A stretch of 64,000 nucleotides of DNA, from NCBI GenBank assembly GCA_046290465.1, contig JBKAGP010000001.1, positions 3,776,001-3,840,000 on the forward strand, in the 5' to 3' direction. Each line of letters begins with the position of its first letter. The first letter of the stretch is position 1. Below the pieces are notes generated by a model. The model was not told the origin of the DNA. It saw only the letters and a program-made list of their open reading frames with translations, and searched no databases. Of the stretch, positions 22,158 to 29,849 are shown piece by piece. The stretch is from Planctomycetota bacterium. Lineage in GTDB: Bacteria > Planctomycetota > UBA1135 > UBA2386. Position numbers and translations under genes: made by a program.

Positions 22158-23117
22158 ATGGCGATCGTCGAGCACCTGGCGCTGCAGTTCGCAGCGGTTC
22201 GCGAGGATCCGTGCATCGAGGAGCGCGTGCTGCGCGAGGGCGCGCACCGCCGCGTGCTGCTGGTCGGCTCGGCCGGCTGCACCGCGCTCTACCTGCACGC
22301 GGTGATGCCGGAGCTGGAGATCGAGCTGGTCGACCCCAACCCGGCGCAGCTCGCGCACGTCGCGCTGAAGCAGCGTGCGCTCGGCAGCTTCGCGCCGGCC
22401 CGCTTCAACGTCGGCACCGCCGATCCGCAGGGCCTGCACGAGTGCGGCAACTTCGAACGGCTGTTCCGCCTGTTCCGCGACGCGCTCGACCGGTTCGTGA
22501 TCTCGGCCGACGAACGGCGTCGTCGCTTCGAGGACGAGGGCAGCGACTGGCAGGACGTGGTCGAACATCGCTACTGGCCGGCTGCGTTCGCGACCGTGTT
22601 CTCCGACGAACTGCTGGTCGCGATGTTCGGCCCCGACGCCGTGCAGCACGCGCGCCCGCACAGCTATCCGTCGTACTTCCGGCAGCGCATCGAACTCGGC
22701 CTGCGCGACCCCGAACGCAACCGGAACCCGTGGCTGCACCACGTGCTGCTCGGTCACTACCGTGAGGCCGACGGCGCCTGGCCTCCCTACCTGCAGAAGC
22801 GCGTCGCCATCCTGCAGCCGTTCGTGACCCACGGCTGCGCGCTGCTCGAGGTCGACAGCTTCGCGCCGTACGACTTCGTGCAGCTGTCCAACGTGATGGA
22901 CTGGATGGCGCCGGACGACTGCGCGGCGCTGGCCACGCGGCTCTCCGCCGAACTCGCACCCGGCGCCAGGATTCTCTGGCGCCAGCTCAACAACAACCGG
23001 GACCTGACCGGCCACTTCGCCCCCGCATTCGCGTTCGACACCGAACGGGACGCGTCGCTGACCGCCGACGAGCGCAGCCTGTTCTACAATCGCGTGCACT
23101 GCGGAGTCCGCGCATGA
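22158..23117 (+). CDS. DUF3419/BtaA-like SAM-dependent transferase
   Basis: REDPCIE, VLLVGSAGCTAL, VDPNPAQL, GNFERLF, PPYL, LSNVMDWM, PGARILWR follow the BtaA/DUF3419 motif order. Confidence 0.75.
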   Translation: MAIVEHLALQFAAVREDPCIEERVLREGAHRRVLLVGSAGCTALYLHAVMPELEIELVDPNPAQLAHVALKQRALGSFAPARFNVGTADPQGLHECGNFERLFRLFRDALDRFVISADERRRRFEDEGSDWQDVVEHRYWPAAFATVFSDELLVAMFGPDAVQHARPHSYPSYFRQRIELGLRDPERNRNPWLHHVLLGHYREADGAWPPYLQKRVAILQPFVTHGCALLEVDSFAPYDFVQLSNVMDWMAPDDCAALATRLSAELAPGARILWRQLNNNRDLTGHFAPAFAFDTERDASLTADERSLFYNRVHCGVRA

Positions 23118-23839
23118 GCCTGCAAGACCGAATCCAGTCGGTGCTCGACGAGCACCCCGTCGCCGCCAACCCTTACCTGTCGTCGCTGCGCGACGGCGCC
23201 CTGACCCGCGAGGACTTCCTCGAGACGCAGATCCAGTTCTACTACGCGGTGGTGTTCTTCAGCCGGCCGATGGCCGTGCTCGCGGCCAAGATCCCGTCGG
23301 CCGCCACCCGCACCGAGATCCTGCGCAACGTGTGGGAGGAGCACGGGGAGGGCGACGCCGAGTCCCGGCACGGCGCGACCTTCCTGGAGCTGCTGCACCG
23401 GCTGGGCGGCCTCGGCAAGGACGACGTCGAGGCGCGCGCGCTGTGGCCGGAGCTGCGCGCCTTCAACACGACGCTGATCGGCTGCTGCGCGCTCGACGAC
23501 TGGGAGATCGGCGCCGGCTGCCTCGGCATCATCGAGCGCATGTTCGTCGACATCTCCGCGTGGATCGGCCAGAGCATCGCCGACCGCGGCTGGCTGCCGA
23601 AGGACCGCATCGTGCACTACTCGGTGCACGAGGTGCTCGACATCAAACACAGCGAGGACTTCTTCGCGACGCTCGCGCCGACGTGGGAACGCAGCGAGGA
23701 GAAGCGCTACCTGATCACGCAGGGGCTCCAGCTCGGCGCCTACACGTTCGACCGGCTCTATCGCGACCTGTTCGCCGCGCGTCTGCGCCGCGTGATGTCG
23801 CCGGTCGTGCGGCCGCAGCGACACGTCTACGACGAATGA
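23114..23839 (+). CDS. Heme-oxygenase-like di-iron oxidase (CADD/PqqC/TenA superfamily)
   Basis: E76 (WEEHG), H86, E141, H172/D176/H179 (VHEVLDIKH) match the CADD-type metal ligand spacing; ATGA overlap with upstream stop. Confidence 0.8.
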   Translation: MSLQDRIQSVLDEHPVAANPYLSSLRDGALTREDFLETQIQFYYAVVFFSRPMAVLAAKIPSAATRTEILRNVWEEHGEGDAESRHGATFLELLHRLGGLGKDDVEARALWPELRAFNTTLIGCCALDDWEIGAGCLGIIERMFVDISAWIGQSIADRGWLPKDRIVHYSVHEVLDIKHSEDFFATLAPTWERSEEKRYLITQGLQLGAYTFDRLYRDLFAARLRRVMSPVVRPQRHVYDE

Positions 23840-24621
23840 GCGACCTGCGGGTCCTGCAGGTCCGTCCCGACCGCTTCGCGAACTGGCAGGACGACCTGCG
23901 CACGTTCGAAGAACGGTTCGAGTATCCGCTCGGCGACGACCACTTCCACATCGACCACGGCGAGGACTACCTGGCGTTCTTCCGCCGACTCGGTGAGCCG
24001 GCGCCGTTCCTGGCGACCGTCGCGCGCCGCGTCGTCGGTGTGCTGGTCGCGGTGCGACGGCGCGTCGGCCGTCGCGAGGGCTGGTATCTGTGCGACCTCA
24101 AGGTCGACCCGGTCTACGCGCGCTACCGCGCCGCGACGCGCCTGTTGACGTCGTGGGCGCGCGCGCACCTGCAGGATGGCGAGCCGGTGTTCGGCGTGTC
24201 GATGAACCCCGCGCGCGGCGACAACCGGCTGGTGCGCGCGATGCGCCGCTGGCGCGCCGACGAACTGTCGCACGCGCCGATCGTGCTCTACTCGCTGAGC
24301 CACGAGCAGTGGCTCGATCGGGCCGACGAGATCACGGCGGCGCTCGGACCGATCGGCTGGTTTGACCCGCACGGCGTCAAGGACATCGTGCTGCGCAGCA
24401 GCGGCGCCCCGATGCCGCTGCTGCACGCCCAGCACGGCCCGTTCGCGCGGGCCAACGCCGAGGCCCGAGCAGGCGCCGTGCACATGTTCTGCCTGCCTGC
24501 CGACGACGTGCTGGTGGAACGGATGCGGCAGCGCGGCCTGCGGCCGGACGCGACCGCGACGATCGTGCATCGCGACGCCGACGGCGCCAACTGGCGTCAC
24601 CTGCTGAGCAGCGACATCTGA
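23836..24621 (+). CDS. GNAT-like acyltransferase
   Basis: ATG 23836 overlaps the upstream TGA; VVGVLVAVRR...WYLCDLKVDPVYARYRAATRLL resembles GNAT motif A. Confidence 0.6.
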   Translation: MSDLRVLQVRPDRFANWQDDLRTFEERFEYPLGDDHFHIDHGEDYLAFFRRLGEPAPFLATVARRVVGVLVAVRRRVGRREGWYLCDLKVDPVYARYRAATRLLTSWARAHLQDGEPVFGVSMNPARGDNRLVRAMRRWRADELSHAPIVLYSLSHEQWLDRADEITAALGPIGWFDPHGVKDIVLRSSGAPMPLLHAQHGPFARANAEARAGAVHMFCLPADDVLVERMRQRGLRPDATATIVHRDADGANWRHLLSSDI

Positions 24622-24671: not shown

Positions 24672-26498
24672 TCAGCGCAGCTGCTTCAGCAGGTCCTGCA
24701 CCACCTGCAGGTCCGGCCGCAGCTTCGCCGCGCGTTCGAGTTCGCGCCGGGCGTCCGCCTTGCGCCCCCTCGCCATCAGCACGCGGCCGAGGTTGAAGCG
24801 CGCGTTGAAGTAGTCCGGGTCGATGCCGAGCGCGAGCCGGTAGTGGCGCTCGGCGACCTCCAGCCGTTCGGCCGCGAAGTTGGCCGTCGCAAAGTTCTGG
24901 TGCGCGGCCGCGGCGTTCGGCAGCGCCCGGACCGCAGCCCCGAAGTGCCGCAGCGCTCCCTGGTTGTCGCCGCGCCGCCCGCAGATGGTGCCGAGCTGCA
25001 TGTGCGTCATCGCGTGGCCGGGATCGACCTGCAGCGCACGCCGGTAGTGGCGCTCGGCCTCCTGCGGCTGCTTGCGGAACTCGGCCAGCAAGCCGCGTTC
25101 GTACCAGACGTCCGGGGCCCCCGGGGAGATCTCGCAGGCCTTCTCGATCGCATCCTGCGCGACCGCGAAGTTGCCGCGACCGCGTTCGAGCTGGGCCTTG
25201 CGCATCAGCAGGTTCCAGGCCCTGGGCAGCTTCTCGAGATCCCGGTCGACGCTGGCGAGCTGCAGCAGGTCGCGTTCTTGCGGGCTGCGCACCGTCAGCG
25301 ACAGCGTCAGCGTGCCCATCTCGTCCGCCGACTGCTGGCCGAAGCGCACCCGCTGCAGCGGGCGCACCGGGTTGTTGTCGTTGGCCTCGCTGTTGTCGTA
25401 GACGTACTCGATCGCGAGGCGCGTGCCCGCGGGCAGCACGATCGGCTCTCGGTAGCGGTAGTCGTCCTGCCAGTCGAAGTCCCAGTCGTCGATCGCGAAC
25501 AGCGTGCGCACCGAACCGTCGGGCAGCGTCGCCGTCGCGCGCATGCGCCGACACACGTAGTGCGCGTGCGGGTAGATCGCGTGCAGCTGCACCGGCACCG
25601 GCAGCACGATGTGGTCGCGCAGCACGAAGTTGTCGTCACCGGGCGCGATGTCGATCTCCTCGGAGAACAGCATCAGCAGCTCGTACGGCTGCCGCATCGG
25701 CCGGTCGGTGAACCAGATGCCGATGCGCGGCTGCACCTTCTCGGCCTTGCCGACCGGCACCGCGTGCAGCTGCAGCACCAGGTCGTCGCCGGGGAACAGC
25801 CGCCACGACATGCCGTCGGCGCTGCGGCGCACGGTCTTGCCCGGTGTCCAGCCGAGGAAGTGGCCGTCGGGCGAACCGGCGGCGCCGAGCGTCATGCCCG
25901 GAAAGCCCGGCTCGGCGTCGCGCGCGTCGGCCTGCCGCGACAGCCGCGTGCGGTCGACGCCGAGCACCGCGTGGTGCACGGCGGCGTTGCCCGGCAGGAT
26001 CTCGACCGCGGCCACGAATCGCATGCGCTCGACGTCGATCGGCACGACAAAGTTGCGCACGATGTCCGGGCCCGCCGCCGGCACTTCGAGCACGTCCGGC
26101 ATCTCGACGACCAGGTCCGGCTCACCGAGCTGCCACCCGGACGGATAGGTCGGCGGCGCCGGCTCCTGCTCGCGGTCGCCGCGCGGCGCGCCGGCGTCGA
26201 CCCAGGCCTCGAGCGTCGCGATGTCCGCCGCAGCCATGCGACGATCGCCGACGAACTCGCCGTGGCTCGGCTGCCACGGCGGCATGTAGCCGTCCTTGAC
26301 CACCTCGAGCACGAACGCGCGCTTCTTGAACACGTCCTCGTAGCTGCGCAGCGAGAACGGCGCCGGCTGGCCCGGCCGATGGCACGGCGTGCACGACCGG
26401 TGCACGATCGCGGCGACGTCGGCCGCCCACGTCGGCGCCTGCGCGGGCAGCGCGGCGAGGCCGACCAGGCTTTTGAGCACGAGGCGGATGGCGGACAT
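24672..26498 (-). CDS. Secreted c-type heme / copper type II (PHM/DBH-like) monooxygenase-domain protein with TPRs
   Basis: CTPCH heme motif, MPPW, VHHAVL (CuH), LQLH, YPHAH and DEM (CuM), WDFDWQ; C-terminal TPRs. Confidence 0.8.
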   Translation of the reverse strand: MSAIRLVLKSLVGLAALPAQAPTWAADVAAIVHRSCTPCHRPGQPAPFSLRSYEDVFKKRAFVLEVVKDGYMPPWQPSHGEFVGDRRMAAADIATLEAWVDAGAPRGDREQEPAPPTYPSGWQLGEPDLVVEMPDVLEVPAAGPDIVRNFVVPIDVERMRFVAAVEILPGNAAVHHAVLGVDRTRLSRQADARDAEPGFPGMTLGAAGSPDGHFLGWTPGKTVRRSADGMSWRLFPGDDLVLQLHAVPVGKAEKVQPRIGIWFTDRPMRQPYELLMLFSEEIDIAPGDDNFVLRDHIVLPVPVQLHAIYPHAHYVCRRMRATATLPDGSVRTLFAIDDWDFDWQDDYRYREPIVLPAGTRLAIEYVYDNSEANDNNPVRPLQRVRFGQQSADEMGTLTLSLTVRSPQERDLLQLASVDRDLEKLPRAWNLLMRKAQLERGRGNFAVAQDAIEKACEISPGAPDVWYERGLLAEFRKQPQEAERHYRRALQVDPGHAMTHMQLGTICGRRGDNQGALRHFGAAVRALPNAAAAHQNFATANFAAERLEVAERHYRLALGIDPDYFNARFNLGRVLMARGRKADARRELERAAKLRPDLQVVQDLLKQLR

Positions 26499-26544
26499 GC
26501 GGCAACGATCATCATCGCTGCCGGCGGGATGTCCAGCGGGGTCG

Positions 26545-28041
26545 CTACTCGAGCACGACGACGCGCGTCACCTGCTGGTTGACGCCGAGCCCGCCGATGG
26601 CGAACGCGACGATCGCGCGGCCGGCGTCGTCGAGGCCGCCGTGGAACTCGCCGATCGTCTGCATCGGCTCCGGGATCCGGTAGAGCAACCGGTCCAGCTC
26701 GCTCTGGGCGCGCGGCCGGCTGCGCTGAAACGCGAGTTCCCTGCCGTCGGCGCTGCGCAGCAGCCCCCAGGTCTCGGCCCGCACCGGCGACTGCAGCAGC
26801 TTGCGTTCGAACGTCGTCGCCGAGAACGCGTTGGGGATGCTGACCCAGCCGTCGCGTTCGAGCCGCACGAACTGCCGGTAGGCGTTGCCGATGCCGCTGA
26901 CGTTGAGTTCGACGACCGTCGAGCCGGCGACGCCGGTCCGCACCGCCTCGATGCCGAGGAACGTGAAGCCGGGCCCCGGCTCCCAGACCACCAGGTCGAC
27001 GGCGTCGCCGAGCCCGGTCTCCGGCTCGAACCGCCGGCCGCGCAGGATCCACCGCGGGTCGTCGCGCACGGTCCACAGCAGCCAGCCGCTGCCGTCCGCG
27101 GCCACGTCCCAGCGCGGCTGCGGCGTCAGGCCGGCTTCCTCGAACTCCAACGGCACCTGGCTGCCCGCCGCGAAGCGAACGAAGCGCAGCTTGCCCGGCT
27201 CGCCCCACGCGCCCGACACCGCCCCGTCGTCGGCGATGCGCGGCGTCGGCCCGTAGATCGTCACGTACGGGATGCGGTCGAAGGCCAGCCCGTCCGCGCC
27301 GAGCACCCAGAAGCCACCCTGGCCGGGGAGCACGGTGTTCTCGCGCGTGAACGTCACCACGTCGCCGCGCGTGTTGAGGTCGATCGGCCCGCTGGTCGCC
27401 GGCATCAGCACGCGGTCGCGTTCGCCGTCGAGACCGGTGCGCACCAGCCACTGCTCGGTGGCCACCGGGTCGTACTCGACCTGCACCGCGCGGCCGTCGC
27501 CGAACGGCAGCGCGTCAGGTCGCAGGTTGGTGGACCGTTCGACGGTGCCGGTGGCGGTGACCTCGAACCACCGCTGGTCCGCGCAGACGGCGCTGCGACC
27601 GTTGGGCCAGACCATCACCCGCTCGACGGTGACGCCCGCGAGGTCGTAGCTGCGCAACGTCGCCGCTTCGCGCACGGCGAAGCGAGCCACGGGTCCCTGC
27701 GTCCGCGACGCGATCTCGACCGTGCTGCCGCGCGGCAGCTGGTTCTGCGGAACCCAGCGCCAGGTGCCGCCGCCGACCAGCACGAACGTGCCGGGCAGCT
27801 GGTTGACGCCATCGCCGACGGTGACGTCGCCGTTGGGCGAGCCGCCGATCGGCAGCGCGACCTCGATGCGCACCTCGGCCGTCGGTTCGACGTCGGCGGC
27901 GCCGTCGGCCGGCTCGGTGCGCAGGATCGTCGGAGTGGTCGCGAACGGCGCGTTGGCGCCGCCGCCGTTGCTGCAGGCCGCGAACGTCGCCGCGGCCAAC
28001 AGCACGCAGACGGACGGACGCAGGGGTTTCGAGGGGGTCAT
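26545..28041 (-). CDS. Lipoprotein with N-terminal Ig-like domain (paralog A)
   Basis: ATG 28041 after GGAGA; lipobox FAA|C; TEPADGAADVEPTAEV Ig-like start. Confidence 0.75.
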   Translation of the reverse strand: MTPSKPLRPSVCVLLAAATFAACSNGGGANAPFATTPTILRTEPADGAADVEPTAEVRIEVALPIGGSPNGDVTVGDGVNQLPGTFVLVGGGTWRWVPQNQLPRGSTVEIASRTQGPVARFAVREAATLRSYDLAGVTVERVMVWPNGRSAVCADQRWFEVTATGTVERSTNLRPDALPFGDGRAVQVEYDPVATEQWLVRTGLDGERDRVLMPATSGPIDLNTRGDVVTFTRENTVLPGQGGFWVLGADGLAFDRIPYVTIYGPTPRIADDGAVSGAWGEPGKLRFVRFAAGSQVPLEFEEAGLTPQPRWDVAADGSGWLLWTVRDDPRWILRGRRFEPETGLGDAVDLVVWEPGPGFTFLGIEAVRTGVAGSTVVELNVSGIGNAYRQFVRLERDGWVSIPNAFSATTFERKLLQSPVRAETWGLLRSADGRELAFQRSRPRAQSELDRLLYRIPEPMQTIGEFHGGLDDAGRAIVAFAIGGLGVNQQVTRVVVLE

Positions 28042-28100
28042 GTTCTCTCCAGTCGACTCACGGGTCCGGCGACCGCCGCAGAGCTTACCCGATCCCGCAC

Positions 28101-29666
28101 CTACTCGAGCACCACGACGTGCGCGGCGGTCGCGGCGTTGCCCGGCTGCACGGTCTGGTAGACCGAGAACATCCGGCCGCTCTCGTCGGCGAGCGGGCCC
28201 TCGGTGAGCTCCCACAGCGGATCGATCGGCGCCAACGGGATGCCGGGATCGGCGATCTGCTCGCTCTCGGTGCCGGGTCGGCTGCGCCAACCGATCGCGA
28301 CCGTCGCGTACGGCGCGAGCAGCAGGTACGGCCGCACCCAGAACTCGGCGCGGCCCGGCGCCAGGATGATCTCGTTGGTGCCGCTGCCGGTCGCGTAGGC
28401 CCACGGCTCGCTGGTCCAGCCGTCGGGCTCGACGCGCAGCGCCTCCTGACGGGTCGAGTAGACGCCGACGCCCTGGGTCTGCAGCCGCAGCAGCACCGAG
28501 CCACCGCGGCCGGCGAGCGCCGCGAAGCGATCGGGTTCGAACGACAGCAGCGGCAGCGCCAGGCGGTCCGCCCACCGGTGCAGTTCGACGGCCGCCCCGA
28601 GCCCGACTCCGGGTTGGTAGCGGGCGCCGTAGAGCGTGCCCGAACCGCCGAGGAGCGGGCCCGGCGACTCGACCTCGAACCAGAACGCCCAGCCGGCGCC
28701 GTGCTTGTCCTGCGCCACGTAGGTGTACAGGAAGCCCTCGGGCAGCGCCGTGATCTCGGCGTCCAGGCTGCCGCGCGCGAAGCGGCGCAGCTCGGGCTGC
28801 GGCAGGTCCGCCACGATCGACACGGCGCCGTCGTCGGCGATGTGCGGCAGGCGGAACACCGCCAGCTGCGGCTCGACGTCGGTCGGACCCGCCAGCTCCC
28901 AGGCCACCGCGTCGTGGTCGAGCCGCCACAGGCCGCGCTCGGACGGCTCCGGGTGCGAACCCGACACGAACATCACGAAGTCGCCGCGGCCGTTGACCGC
29001 CACCGGCCCGGTCACCGAAGGCGGCAGCGTGCGGTCACGTTCGCCGTCGAGCCCGCCGCGCACGCTCCACCACTGCTGGCTGCTCGGGTCCTGTTCGTAC
29101 CACAGCGCCTCGCCGTCGCCGTAGGCGAAGATCGTGTCCGGCATCTGCACGAAGCGCTCGACCAGGCCGCCATCGGTGACCTCGAACCAGCGTCCGTCGG
29201 CACGCAGCGCCGCACGCCCGTTGGGCCAGACCCGCAGCGCGCTCGCCGTCATGCCCGGCAGTTCGTAGCTGCGCTGCGCATCGGCCTCGCGCACCGAGAA
29301 CGACGCGACGGCACCCTGCGATCGCGAACGGATCTCGATGCGGTTGCCGCGCGGCAGTTGGCCGAGCGGCTGCCATCGCCAGCGGATCCCACCGAGCGCC
29401 ACCAGTTCGCCGTCGAGCTCGTTGCCGCCATCGTAGACGGTGATGTCGCCGACCGGCGTGCCGCCCTCGGGCAGCGCGATGTCGAGCAGCACCGGTGCGG
29501 TCGGTTCCACATCCACCGCGCCGTCGGGCGGCGAGGTGGTCAGGATCGTCGGCGTCGACACGGTCGGGATCGACGGACCGCCGCCGCCGCCACTGCAGGC
29601 TGCCGCGACTCCCAGGACGACCACGAGCGTGCCGAACGTCCGCATCGAGGGCAGCGGGGTCGGCAT
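28101..29666 (-). CDS. Lipoprotein with N-terminal Ig-like domain (paralog B)
   Basis: Lipobox AAA|C; TSPPDGAVDVEPTAPV; colinear with the downstream gene, both end VVVLE. Confidence 0.75.
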   Translation of the reverse strand: MPTPLPSMRTFGTLVVVLGVAAACSGGGGGPSIPTVSTPTILTTSPPDGAVDVEPTAPVLLDIALPEGGTPVGDITVYDGGNELDGELVALGGIRWRWQPLGQLPRGNRIEIRSRSQGAVASFSVREADAQRSYELPGMTASALRVWPNGRAALRADGRWFEVTDGGLVERFVQMPDTIFAYGDGEALWYEQDPSSQQWWSVRGGLDGERDRTLPPSVTGPVAVNGRGDFVMFVSGSHPEPSERGLWRLDHDAVAWELAGPTDVEPQLAVFRLPHIADDGAVSIVADLPQPELRRFARGSLDAEITALPEGFLYTYVAQDKHGAGWAFWFEVESPGPLLGGSGTLYGARYQPGVGLGAAVELHRWADRLALPLLSFEPDRFAALAGRGGSVLLRLQTQGVGVYSTRQEALRVEPDGWTSEPWAYATGSGTNEIILAPGRAEFWVRPYLLLAPYATVAIGWRSRPGTESEQIADPGIPLAPIDPLWELTEGPLADESGRMFSVYQTVQPGNAATAAHVVVLE

Positions 29667-29849
29667 CGCCGACGAGTATCGCACGACCGGACGCAGGTAA
29701 CAGGTCCCCTGGACGCGCCTCGCTGCTGCGCAACGAGCGCGCCGGTGCGCGCACGCCCCACGGCCGCCGTGGCAGGGAACTCCCACGAAGCGTGCCCGCC
29801 GCGGGCGAACGGTCGCTATCCTGTTCGCCCCCGAACCGGGACCAACGCC

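Follow-up and report, generated by a model that had tools for sequence, protein, structure and literature searches.

A conserved gene cassette for a DUF3419 enzyme, a dimetal oxidase and a tandem-GNAT protein in bacteria and giant viruses, and a tentative route to its product

Three overlapping genes form a self-contained unit

The window analysed here is a stretch of 64,000 nt (contig JBKAGP010000001.1, 3,776,001-3,840,000; assembly GCA_046290465.1) from the genome of a Planctomycetota bacterium (UBA1135; UBA2386). On its forward strand lie three tightly packed genes: gene 1 (22158-23117, +; 319 aa, P0001) encodes a DUF3419/BtaA-family class I S-adenosylmethionine (SAM) enzyme, a predicted 3-amino-3-carboxypropyl (ACP) transferase; gene 2 (23114-23839, +; 241 aa, P0002) a heme-oxygenase-like dimetal oxidase (HDO) whose metal ligands are three histidines and three carboxylates; and gene 3 (23836-24621, +; 261 aa, P0003) a tandem-GNAT acyltransferase with the fixed C-terminus [TS]-x-[DE]-I. 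These assignments draw on PF11899, a structural model and a tree for gene 1, on PF14518, invariant alignment columns and solved relatives for gene 2, and on a model and fold searches for gene 3. Profile hidden Markov models place DUF3419 and Haem_oxygenas_2 firmly; for gene 3 they give a weak GNAT match, with the tandem GNAT arrangement coming from an AlphaFold model. No NCBIfam model reached its cut-off for any trio protein, and none of the three matched the PADLOC anti-phage models.

Reading the sequence directly, we see both of the ATGA stop/start overlaps described in the original prediction, at 23114-23117 (+) between genes 1 and 2 and at 23836-23839 (+) between genes 2 and 3; an identical -4 overlap is found in 17/59 and 11/52 scorable homologous loci, respectively. 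The flanks are likewise as first described, with a divergent gene to one side (21987-20809, -; two fasciclin domains and a PDZ domain by Pfam) located 170 bp from the trio, and a convergent TPR gene to the other (24672-26498, -; 608 aa, by Pfam) at a distance of 50 bp, such that the unit is self-contained. G+C content at third codon positions is 0.91-0.96 in the trio, much as in its neighbours, and no match to a sigma-70 promoter or terminator was found. The genome (G000; one contig, 94% complete) holds each trio gene in single copy, DUF3419 being without a second copy anywhere, and the closest named relatives are Planctomycetota. Reads of one sequencing run, of unrecorded type and possibly the source sample itself, extend over most of the trio, no piece differing at more than one position.

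The trio is conserved as a cassette

An HDO-anchored scan of species genomes gave 151 relatives, the best 80 of which provide our locus counts. All three genes are present at 75 of these 80 loci, with the window's gene order in 72. The remaining five comprise three loci truncated at a contig end or by a probable misjoin, one whose GNAT gene lies on another contig, and one that starts 140 bp before the HDO gene and has no GNAT downstream. Named Poribacteria make up 22 of the 80 and are non-independent; the rest come from Planctomycetota, Myxococcota, Bdellovibrionota, Pseudomonadota, Acidobacteriota, Bacillota and others. A GNAT-anchored scan of metagenomes finds the whole trio at 51/80 loci and, where 1.9 kb or more of upstream sequence is available, at 38 of 41 (some duplicates included).

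A stronger test of linkage than these anchored counts is the unanchored co-occurrence of the genes in 301 genomes of the window's phylum. Here 26 genomes have the HDO clade and 25 the GNAT clade; every one of the 25 is among the 26, and every one also has a PF11899 match. The cassette occurs in about 8% of sampled genomes of the phylum (25/301), and in many other phyla too. Its cultured, harmless carriers include Calothrix sp. PCC 7716, Dulcicalothrix desertica PCC 7102 and Hahella ganghwensis. Where the HDO gene is not adjacent, it was found elsewhere in the genome in all five cases checked. The spread of the GNAT gene is patchy (found in 1 of 40 relatives and in none of 24 further members of the family), and there is no universal fourth gene across the surveyed loci.

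In DNA of 70% GC the two ATGA overlaps are by themselves weak evidence of a functional unit; recurrent tight packing adds weight. Among the 80 loci, counting only gene pairs with a locatable start, the gap is at most 30 nt between genes 1 and 2 in 56/59 and between genes 2 and 3 in 51/52, and the genes stay tightly packed where their order varies. The neighbourhood search proposed for the trio therefore finds it conserved, and the three genes constitute one conserved, self-contained cassette. Databases mislabel its members as BtaA or PQQ synthase.

Some departures from the usual arrangement were also seen. Two HDO-GNAT fusions, P0448 and P0366 (487 and 540 aa), occur among 500 proteins and speak for the genes working as one unit; both are single-member clusters and may include gene-calling artefacts. 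On Streptomyces plasmids (L083:11262-12660) a lone HDO of the clade is found behind an EF-hand gene with transposases around it, and 24 kb of sequence contain no match to DUF3419 or GNAT. At L007:5900-6020 the 5' end of an HDO gene is cut and joined to unrelated DNA, probably an assembly join.

Gene 1 is a BtaA relative that stands apart

Gene 1 matches PF11899 with E 1e-22 (81.4 bits, against a Pfam cut-off of 28.2). Its model (pLDDT, a per-residue confidence score, of 96.5) is a class I methyltransferase/SAM fold bearing a helical cap, and is without a close solved relative: Foldseek returned nothing at E <=0.001, and a fold search gave a best Z of 12.9 among many tied methyltransferases, with the ACP transferase MccD at rank 42 and no SAM cyclase among the 50 matches listed. 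Twenty conserved residues are common to 46 trio DUF3419 proteins and 29 canonical BtaA proteins; those shared include E16-D17-P18, S38-x-G40-C41, D248-W249, R275, R306 and Y310. Elsewhere the two groups differ, R15, E100, S244, N245 and N278 of the trio proteins standing opposite W, A, L and D in BtaA and, for the last, a position that is not conserved there. The trio proteins are also some 60 aa shorter (median 329 against 391 aa), have no membrane helix, and show a median isoelectric point of 5.8 against 8.5 in the 29 BtaA proteins, a comparison made from trimmed open reading frames (ORFs) and with a BtaA set drawn mostly from one phylum.

In a DUF3419 tree made by a quick method with a midpoint root, in which a 63% identical relative (L004) represents the window protein, a branch with support 94 (SH-like approximate likelihood-ratio test) separates 115 trio-linked rows from 34 others. 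The partners differ as well. A BtaB-like gene sits beside 28/28 canonical BtaA loci, whereas trio DUF3419 genes are accompanied by HDO and GNAT, the search for BtaB at trio loci giving only weak generic methyltransferase matches, in three of them. The original prediction had seen no BtaB in the window, an observation that we can extend: a single BtaB query did not find the gene in the 94% complete genome, its best match having E 6e-6. Because it is separate in the tree and BtaB is missing, gene 1 is probably no part of the synthesis of the betaine lipid diacylglyceryltrimethylhomoserine (DGTS); from its sequence, it probably has a BtaA-like activity towards a different acceptor. The cap, together with the trio-specific conserved residues, suggests a second binding site in the protein, and the polar replacements, acidic isoelectric point and lack of a membrane helix make it look suited to a small polar acceptor.

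Gene 2 is an HDO distinct from its named relatives

Gene 2 matches PF14518 (Haem_oxygenas_2) with E 2e-18 (67.2 bits, against a cut-off of 28.9). The original prediction credited it with a complete CADD-type ligand set. All six ligands (E76, H86, E141, H172, D176 and H179) are indeed present, and are invariant in 38/38 diverse homologues, viral ones included; the set is, however, the general one of HDOs and carries no CADD signature (PMC13108848). Further invariant positions in the family are H168, Y169, N72, N118 and A45, and the conserved lining of the HDO is mostly hydrophobic (F42, A45, V46, F49, F90, L94, F117).

The nearest relative depends on the search. A single sequence places gene 2 closest to HrmI (E 1.4e-8), with which it shares the E-to-H spacing; a broad profile gives CADD as the best solved relative (E 2e-16), with BesC also among the solved relatives. 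CADD has the same six ligands and cuts para-aminobenzoate (pABA) from its own Tyr27 and Lys152 (PMC13108848). At the position equivalent to Tyr27 (22 here) at most 3 of 138 family members have Tyr, with Phe or Leu instead, and at that of Lys152 (151 here) none of 138 has Lys, with Ile or Leu instead; the host genome moreover has pabB, above cut-off. For these reasons we reject a CADD identity, as do 32.8 bits against the 200 required by TIGR04305, with the caution that Y21, one residue before the Tyr27 equivalent, is Tyr in 127/138. A BesC identity fails likewise (NF042919, 20.4 bits against a cut-off of 500), as does one with the metal-free TenA/PqqC type: the six ligands are invariant, PF03070 is borderline (22 bits at a cut-off of 22) and PqqC matches have E >=0.08. 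The concern raised in the original prediction, that gene 2 might be an ordinary orthologue of TenA, PqqC or CADD, is thus answered by missed cut-offs and by the absence of the pABA-source residues. To FlcE, HrmI/BelK, AetD, UndA and BesC gene 2 is linked by fold family and by the 3His/3carboxylate set (PMC13108848, PMC11363339, PMC11611017); unlike it, none of these is reported in the available text with DUF3419 and a GNAT of this kind, and the similarity is remote.

Gene 3 is a tandem GNAT with a fixed C-terminus

The Pfam GNAT match of gene 3 is weak (E 0.097), as are its best sequence matches, to aminoglycoside acetyltransferases (E ~1e-3). Its AlphaFold model (pLDDT 95.2) is a tandem GNAT, matching 4zm6 (Z 13.9, root-mean-square deviation (rmsd) 3.3, 213 aligned residues) and 2wpw (Z 13.0). 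The family is large, comprising 975 clusters at 50% identity, and its C-terminus is strikingly constant: of 154 distinct ORFs, 149 end in Ile and 153 have Thr or Ser four residues from the end. In N-myristoyltransferase (NMT), also a double GNAT fold, the C-terminal carboxylate is the catalytic base acting on the alpha-amine. The alignment of our model with NMT extends to residue 261, its last (Z 11.3, rmsd 3.7, 209 aligned), and in a library of viral structures the viral NMTs come next after three close structural matches to gene 3. The two differ in that identity is 9%, gene 3 has just 261 aa and there is no sequence-level match. An NMT-like mechanism employing the C-terminal carboxylate is thus a lead offered by the model.

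Giant viruses carry the cassette

Six viral loci have the GNAT gene, and five of these (four distinct) also have HDO and DUF3419 within about 3.5 kb. Three of the four distinct trio loci adjoin a mimivirus-type poly(A) polymerase and therefore lie within viral DNA. Neighbours of the viral cassette are poly(A) polymerase (four distinct loci, a GNAT-only one included) and TFIIS, RNase III or eIF2-gamma-like genes; the viral HDOs keep all six metal ligands. In Megavirus chiliensis (L092:5716-6780) GNAT is the only cassette gene between poly(A) polymerase and TFIIS, at the site where L089 and L090 have the whole trio; this suggests loss of HDO and DUF3419, as seen for this one locus of 12.8 kb. 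Viral DUF3419 proteins cluster together (support 97) beside a mainly cyanobacterial subtype; their branches are long and AT-biased, and for this reason we do not infer a donor. No HDO match was found in phage records. A pattern scan of viral contigs also returned no HDO, a result that reflects the patterns, since divergent viral HDOs exist. That giant viruses keep the complete cluster suggests that its function is of use within eukaryotic host cells.

A proposed pathway and its alternatives

That the three enzymes serve one pathway with one small product seems to us very probable, and that gene 1 carries out ACP transfer is likely. Our best overall explanation, held tentatively, is that the cassette turns SAM, an acyl thioester, an amino acid and O2 into one small acylated metabolite. 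As genes for a dedicated precursor are absent, common metabolites are the expected substrates. In outline, the GNAT, its C-terminal carboxylate serving as base, would N-acylate a free alpha-amine to form an N-acyl amino acid; DUF3419 would then move the ACP arm of SAM onto an O or N of this scaffold, with release of methylthioadenosine; and the HDO would oxidise and decarboxylate the free amino-acid end so introduced, leaving an oxime or nitrile in the manner of FlcE. This exact order combined with an oxime or nitrile end group is doubtful in full.

Several observations nevertheless favour the GNAT acting first. Across 87 loci the evolutionary distances of DUF3419 and HDO track one another (Spearman 0.84), those of either with GNAT much less so (0.33, 0.23), although these related loci were gathered by similarity to one gene and are non-independent. 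The GNAT stands alone in Megavirus and is seemingly replaceable in Deefgea piscis, where a plasmid (NZ_CP054144.1, L241:5571-8469) carries, between IS elements, a FeeM-like acyltransferase gene in the GNAT's place (a weak match, E 0.004), then HDO, DUF3419 and a SAM decarboxylase (speD); its HDO and GNAT do not match the profiles of the window-type cassette, making this an analogous cluster from other clades. The order is favoured too by the apparent fit of gene 1 to a small polar acceptor, and by precedent for the ACP-transfer and oxidation steps. ACP chemistry itself is supported by the retained BtaA motifs and by the SAM decarboxylase adjoining the Deefgea HDO-DUF3419 pair. FlcE performs oxidative decarboxylation with N-hydroxylation on S-succinyl-cysteine (PMC11363339). 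In the bursatellin pathway of molluscs (bur-ox), an N-acyl amino-acid scaffold, N-acyl tyrosinol, receives the ACP arm of SAM, which is later oxidised to a nitrile by a step that is only predicted; the pathway's enzymes are otherwise unlike ours, being a nonribosomal peptide synthetase, an isonocardicin-synthase-like ACP transferase and flavin monooxygenases or P450, with no DUF3419, HDO or GNAT in the available account (PMC11869996).

Against this proposal stand a number of points besides the limits already attached to the isoelectric points and the distance correlations. Product, substrate and enzyme activities are all assigned by inferred chemistry. The predicted fold of gene 1 does not discriminate between ACP transfer, methyl transfer and SAM cyclisation; the six HDO ligands do not predict chemistry (PMC13108848), nor can they tell N-oxygenation from C-C cleavage; and the hydrophobic HDO lining fits an UndA-like lipid carboxylate equally well. 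As for gene 3, NMT ranks only 15-16 in the fold search (Z 11.3, 11.2), behind other tandem GNATs and tied with many GNATs, and sequence-profile searches gave no NMT match.

The main rival, unlikely in our judgement, is an amino-lipid route, in which diacylglycerol, a fatty alcohol or a fatty acid is converted by DUF3419 to an O-homoseryl lipid, whose amine is then N-acylated by the GNAT in place of BtaB; decarboxylation or desaturation of the N-acyl homoserine by the HDO, as UndA might do it, would yield an enamide-type membrane lipid. The retained BtaA core residues are in keeping with this, as is the hydrophobic lining of the HDO, given that UndA binds the carboxylate of a fatty acid at its iron and houses the chain within a hydrophobic channel (PMC13108848). 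Gene 1 is, on the other hand, acidic, shorter than BtaA and more polar at differing conserved positions. Neighbouring genes speak both ways: a cyanobacterial subtype has a PF00487 desaturase immediately upstream (order desaturase-HDO-DUF3419-GNAT; 15 loci, some duplicates), but this need not act on lipid because its best NCBIfam match is the arginine hydroxylase GntB (78.5 bits, cut-off 380); Mycobacterium riyadhense has an MmpL exporter 106 bp downstream of the trio, but at this locus only; and amongst 68 flanking ORFs isoprenylcysteine-methyltransferase-like genes occur twice and a PAP2 gene once, most of the others having no relation to lipid. With such lipid-type neighbours lineage-limited and ambiguous, an amino-lipid is the weaker description of the product and a small acylated metabolite the stronger.

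Cyclisation of SAM by DUF3419 to azetidine-2-carboxylate or homoserine lactone, with the GNAT acylating the ring amine and the HDO oxidising it, would account for three genes sufficing even in a virus, and cyclases of methyltransferase fold, VioH and AzeJ, are known (PMC10491745). We consider it improbable: the cap and trio-specific residues of gene 1 hint at a second binding site, whilst the lack of a SAM cyclase among its 50 listed fold matches leaves the matter undecided. Modification of a macromolecule, be it tRNA or a translation factor, by ACP transfer, di-iron oxidation and acylation has analogues in acp3U, wybutosine, diphthamide and hypusine. ACP transfer to tRNA and rRNA is established (PMC10491745), and the viral cassette neighbours poly(A) polymerase, TFIIS, RNase III or eIF2-gamma-like genes; yet the loci share no conserved target gene, only 10 tRNA genes lie in 165 loci (1.44 Mb), the proteins of genes 1 and 2 are acidic and the spread is patchy within the host family, and we rate this idea about equally improbable. 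Finally, three ordinary parts lying side by side (a betaine-lipid BtaA, a CADD-type pABA synthase and a drug acetyltransferase) would suit the solved relative of the HDO and the aminoglycoside acetyltransferase matches of the GNAT, but is scarcely credible and largely refuted by the missing BtaB, the replaced CADD residues in a host with pabB, and the strict three-way co-occurrence.

Novelty and wider meaning

Each enzyme family is known, whereas for the combination we found no description; the cassette is real and widespread. The original prediction knew of no pathway with this trio, and our literature search agrees, most subscription journals and supplements lying outside its reach; HDO neighbourhood tables in the supplements of PMC13185094 and PMC11363339 might list it. 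Few ACP transferases are characterised (PMC11869996), and about a dozen HDOs have validated functions (PMC13108848); in this soluble, easily expressed three-gene system both groups would gain new substrates. It is rather unlikely, though it would be of most consequence, that only three enzymes here produce oxime- or nitrile-tipped lipo-amino acids of a new class, the BtaA family gaining a new role and HDOs a new chemistry. If so, giant viruses would encode a specialised-metabolite pathway directed at protist hosts or at the competitors of these, its carriers being predatory, sponge-type and amoeba-linked bacteria, plus giant viruses that keep the cassette intact.

Three matters from the literature are set aside. 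The fischerazole enzyme FshF is CFAS-like and not a DUF3419 protein (PMC13548996). The cly/noc locus has a DUF3419 gene at its border (PMC7923214), and C2-C4 of methionine are incorporated into nocuolin A (PMC9486936); neither text, as available, links the gene to this labelling, and we do not use them as support.

Neighbouring genes and related clusters

The cyanobacteria-type loci with a desaturase upstream of HDO are L123, L126, L132, L150, L158, L165, L173, L174, L178 and L179. Just before the cassette, four loci from different groups (L054:4137-4877, L044:1401-2210, L071:4354-5016, L077:2267-2857) encode a conserved ~230-aa membrane protein that matches no Pfam family. A different DUF3419 cluster, possibly a lipid pathway, is found in Brevibacillus laterosporus (NZ_CP011076.1, L240:1839-13233): genes for HMG-CoA-reductase-like, UbiA and PEP-utilising enzymes, DUF3419, a membrane protein, GNAT and an AMP-binding enzyme, then (judged by eye) a P450-like gene, with no BtaB; related DUF3419 proteins occur in L218 and L219.

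Within the window, the divergent fasciclin-PDZ gene is the part lying under the coverage of a possible RNA run. Two similar, convergent, lipoprotein-like genes (26500-28158, +, without a Pfam match; ~28280-29690, -) share an N-terminal repeat. The product of the convergent gene at 24672-26498 has a signal-like start, a CxxCH motif, a His-rich middle and C-terminal TPRs, the last being its only firm family match; judged by eye, it is copper-monooxygenase-like.

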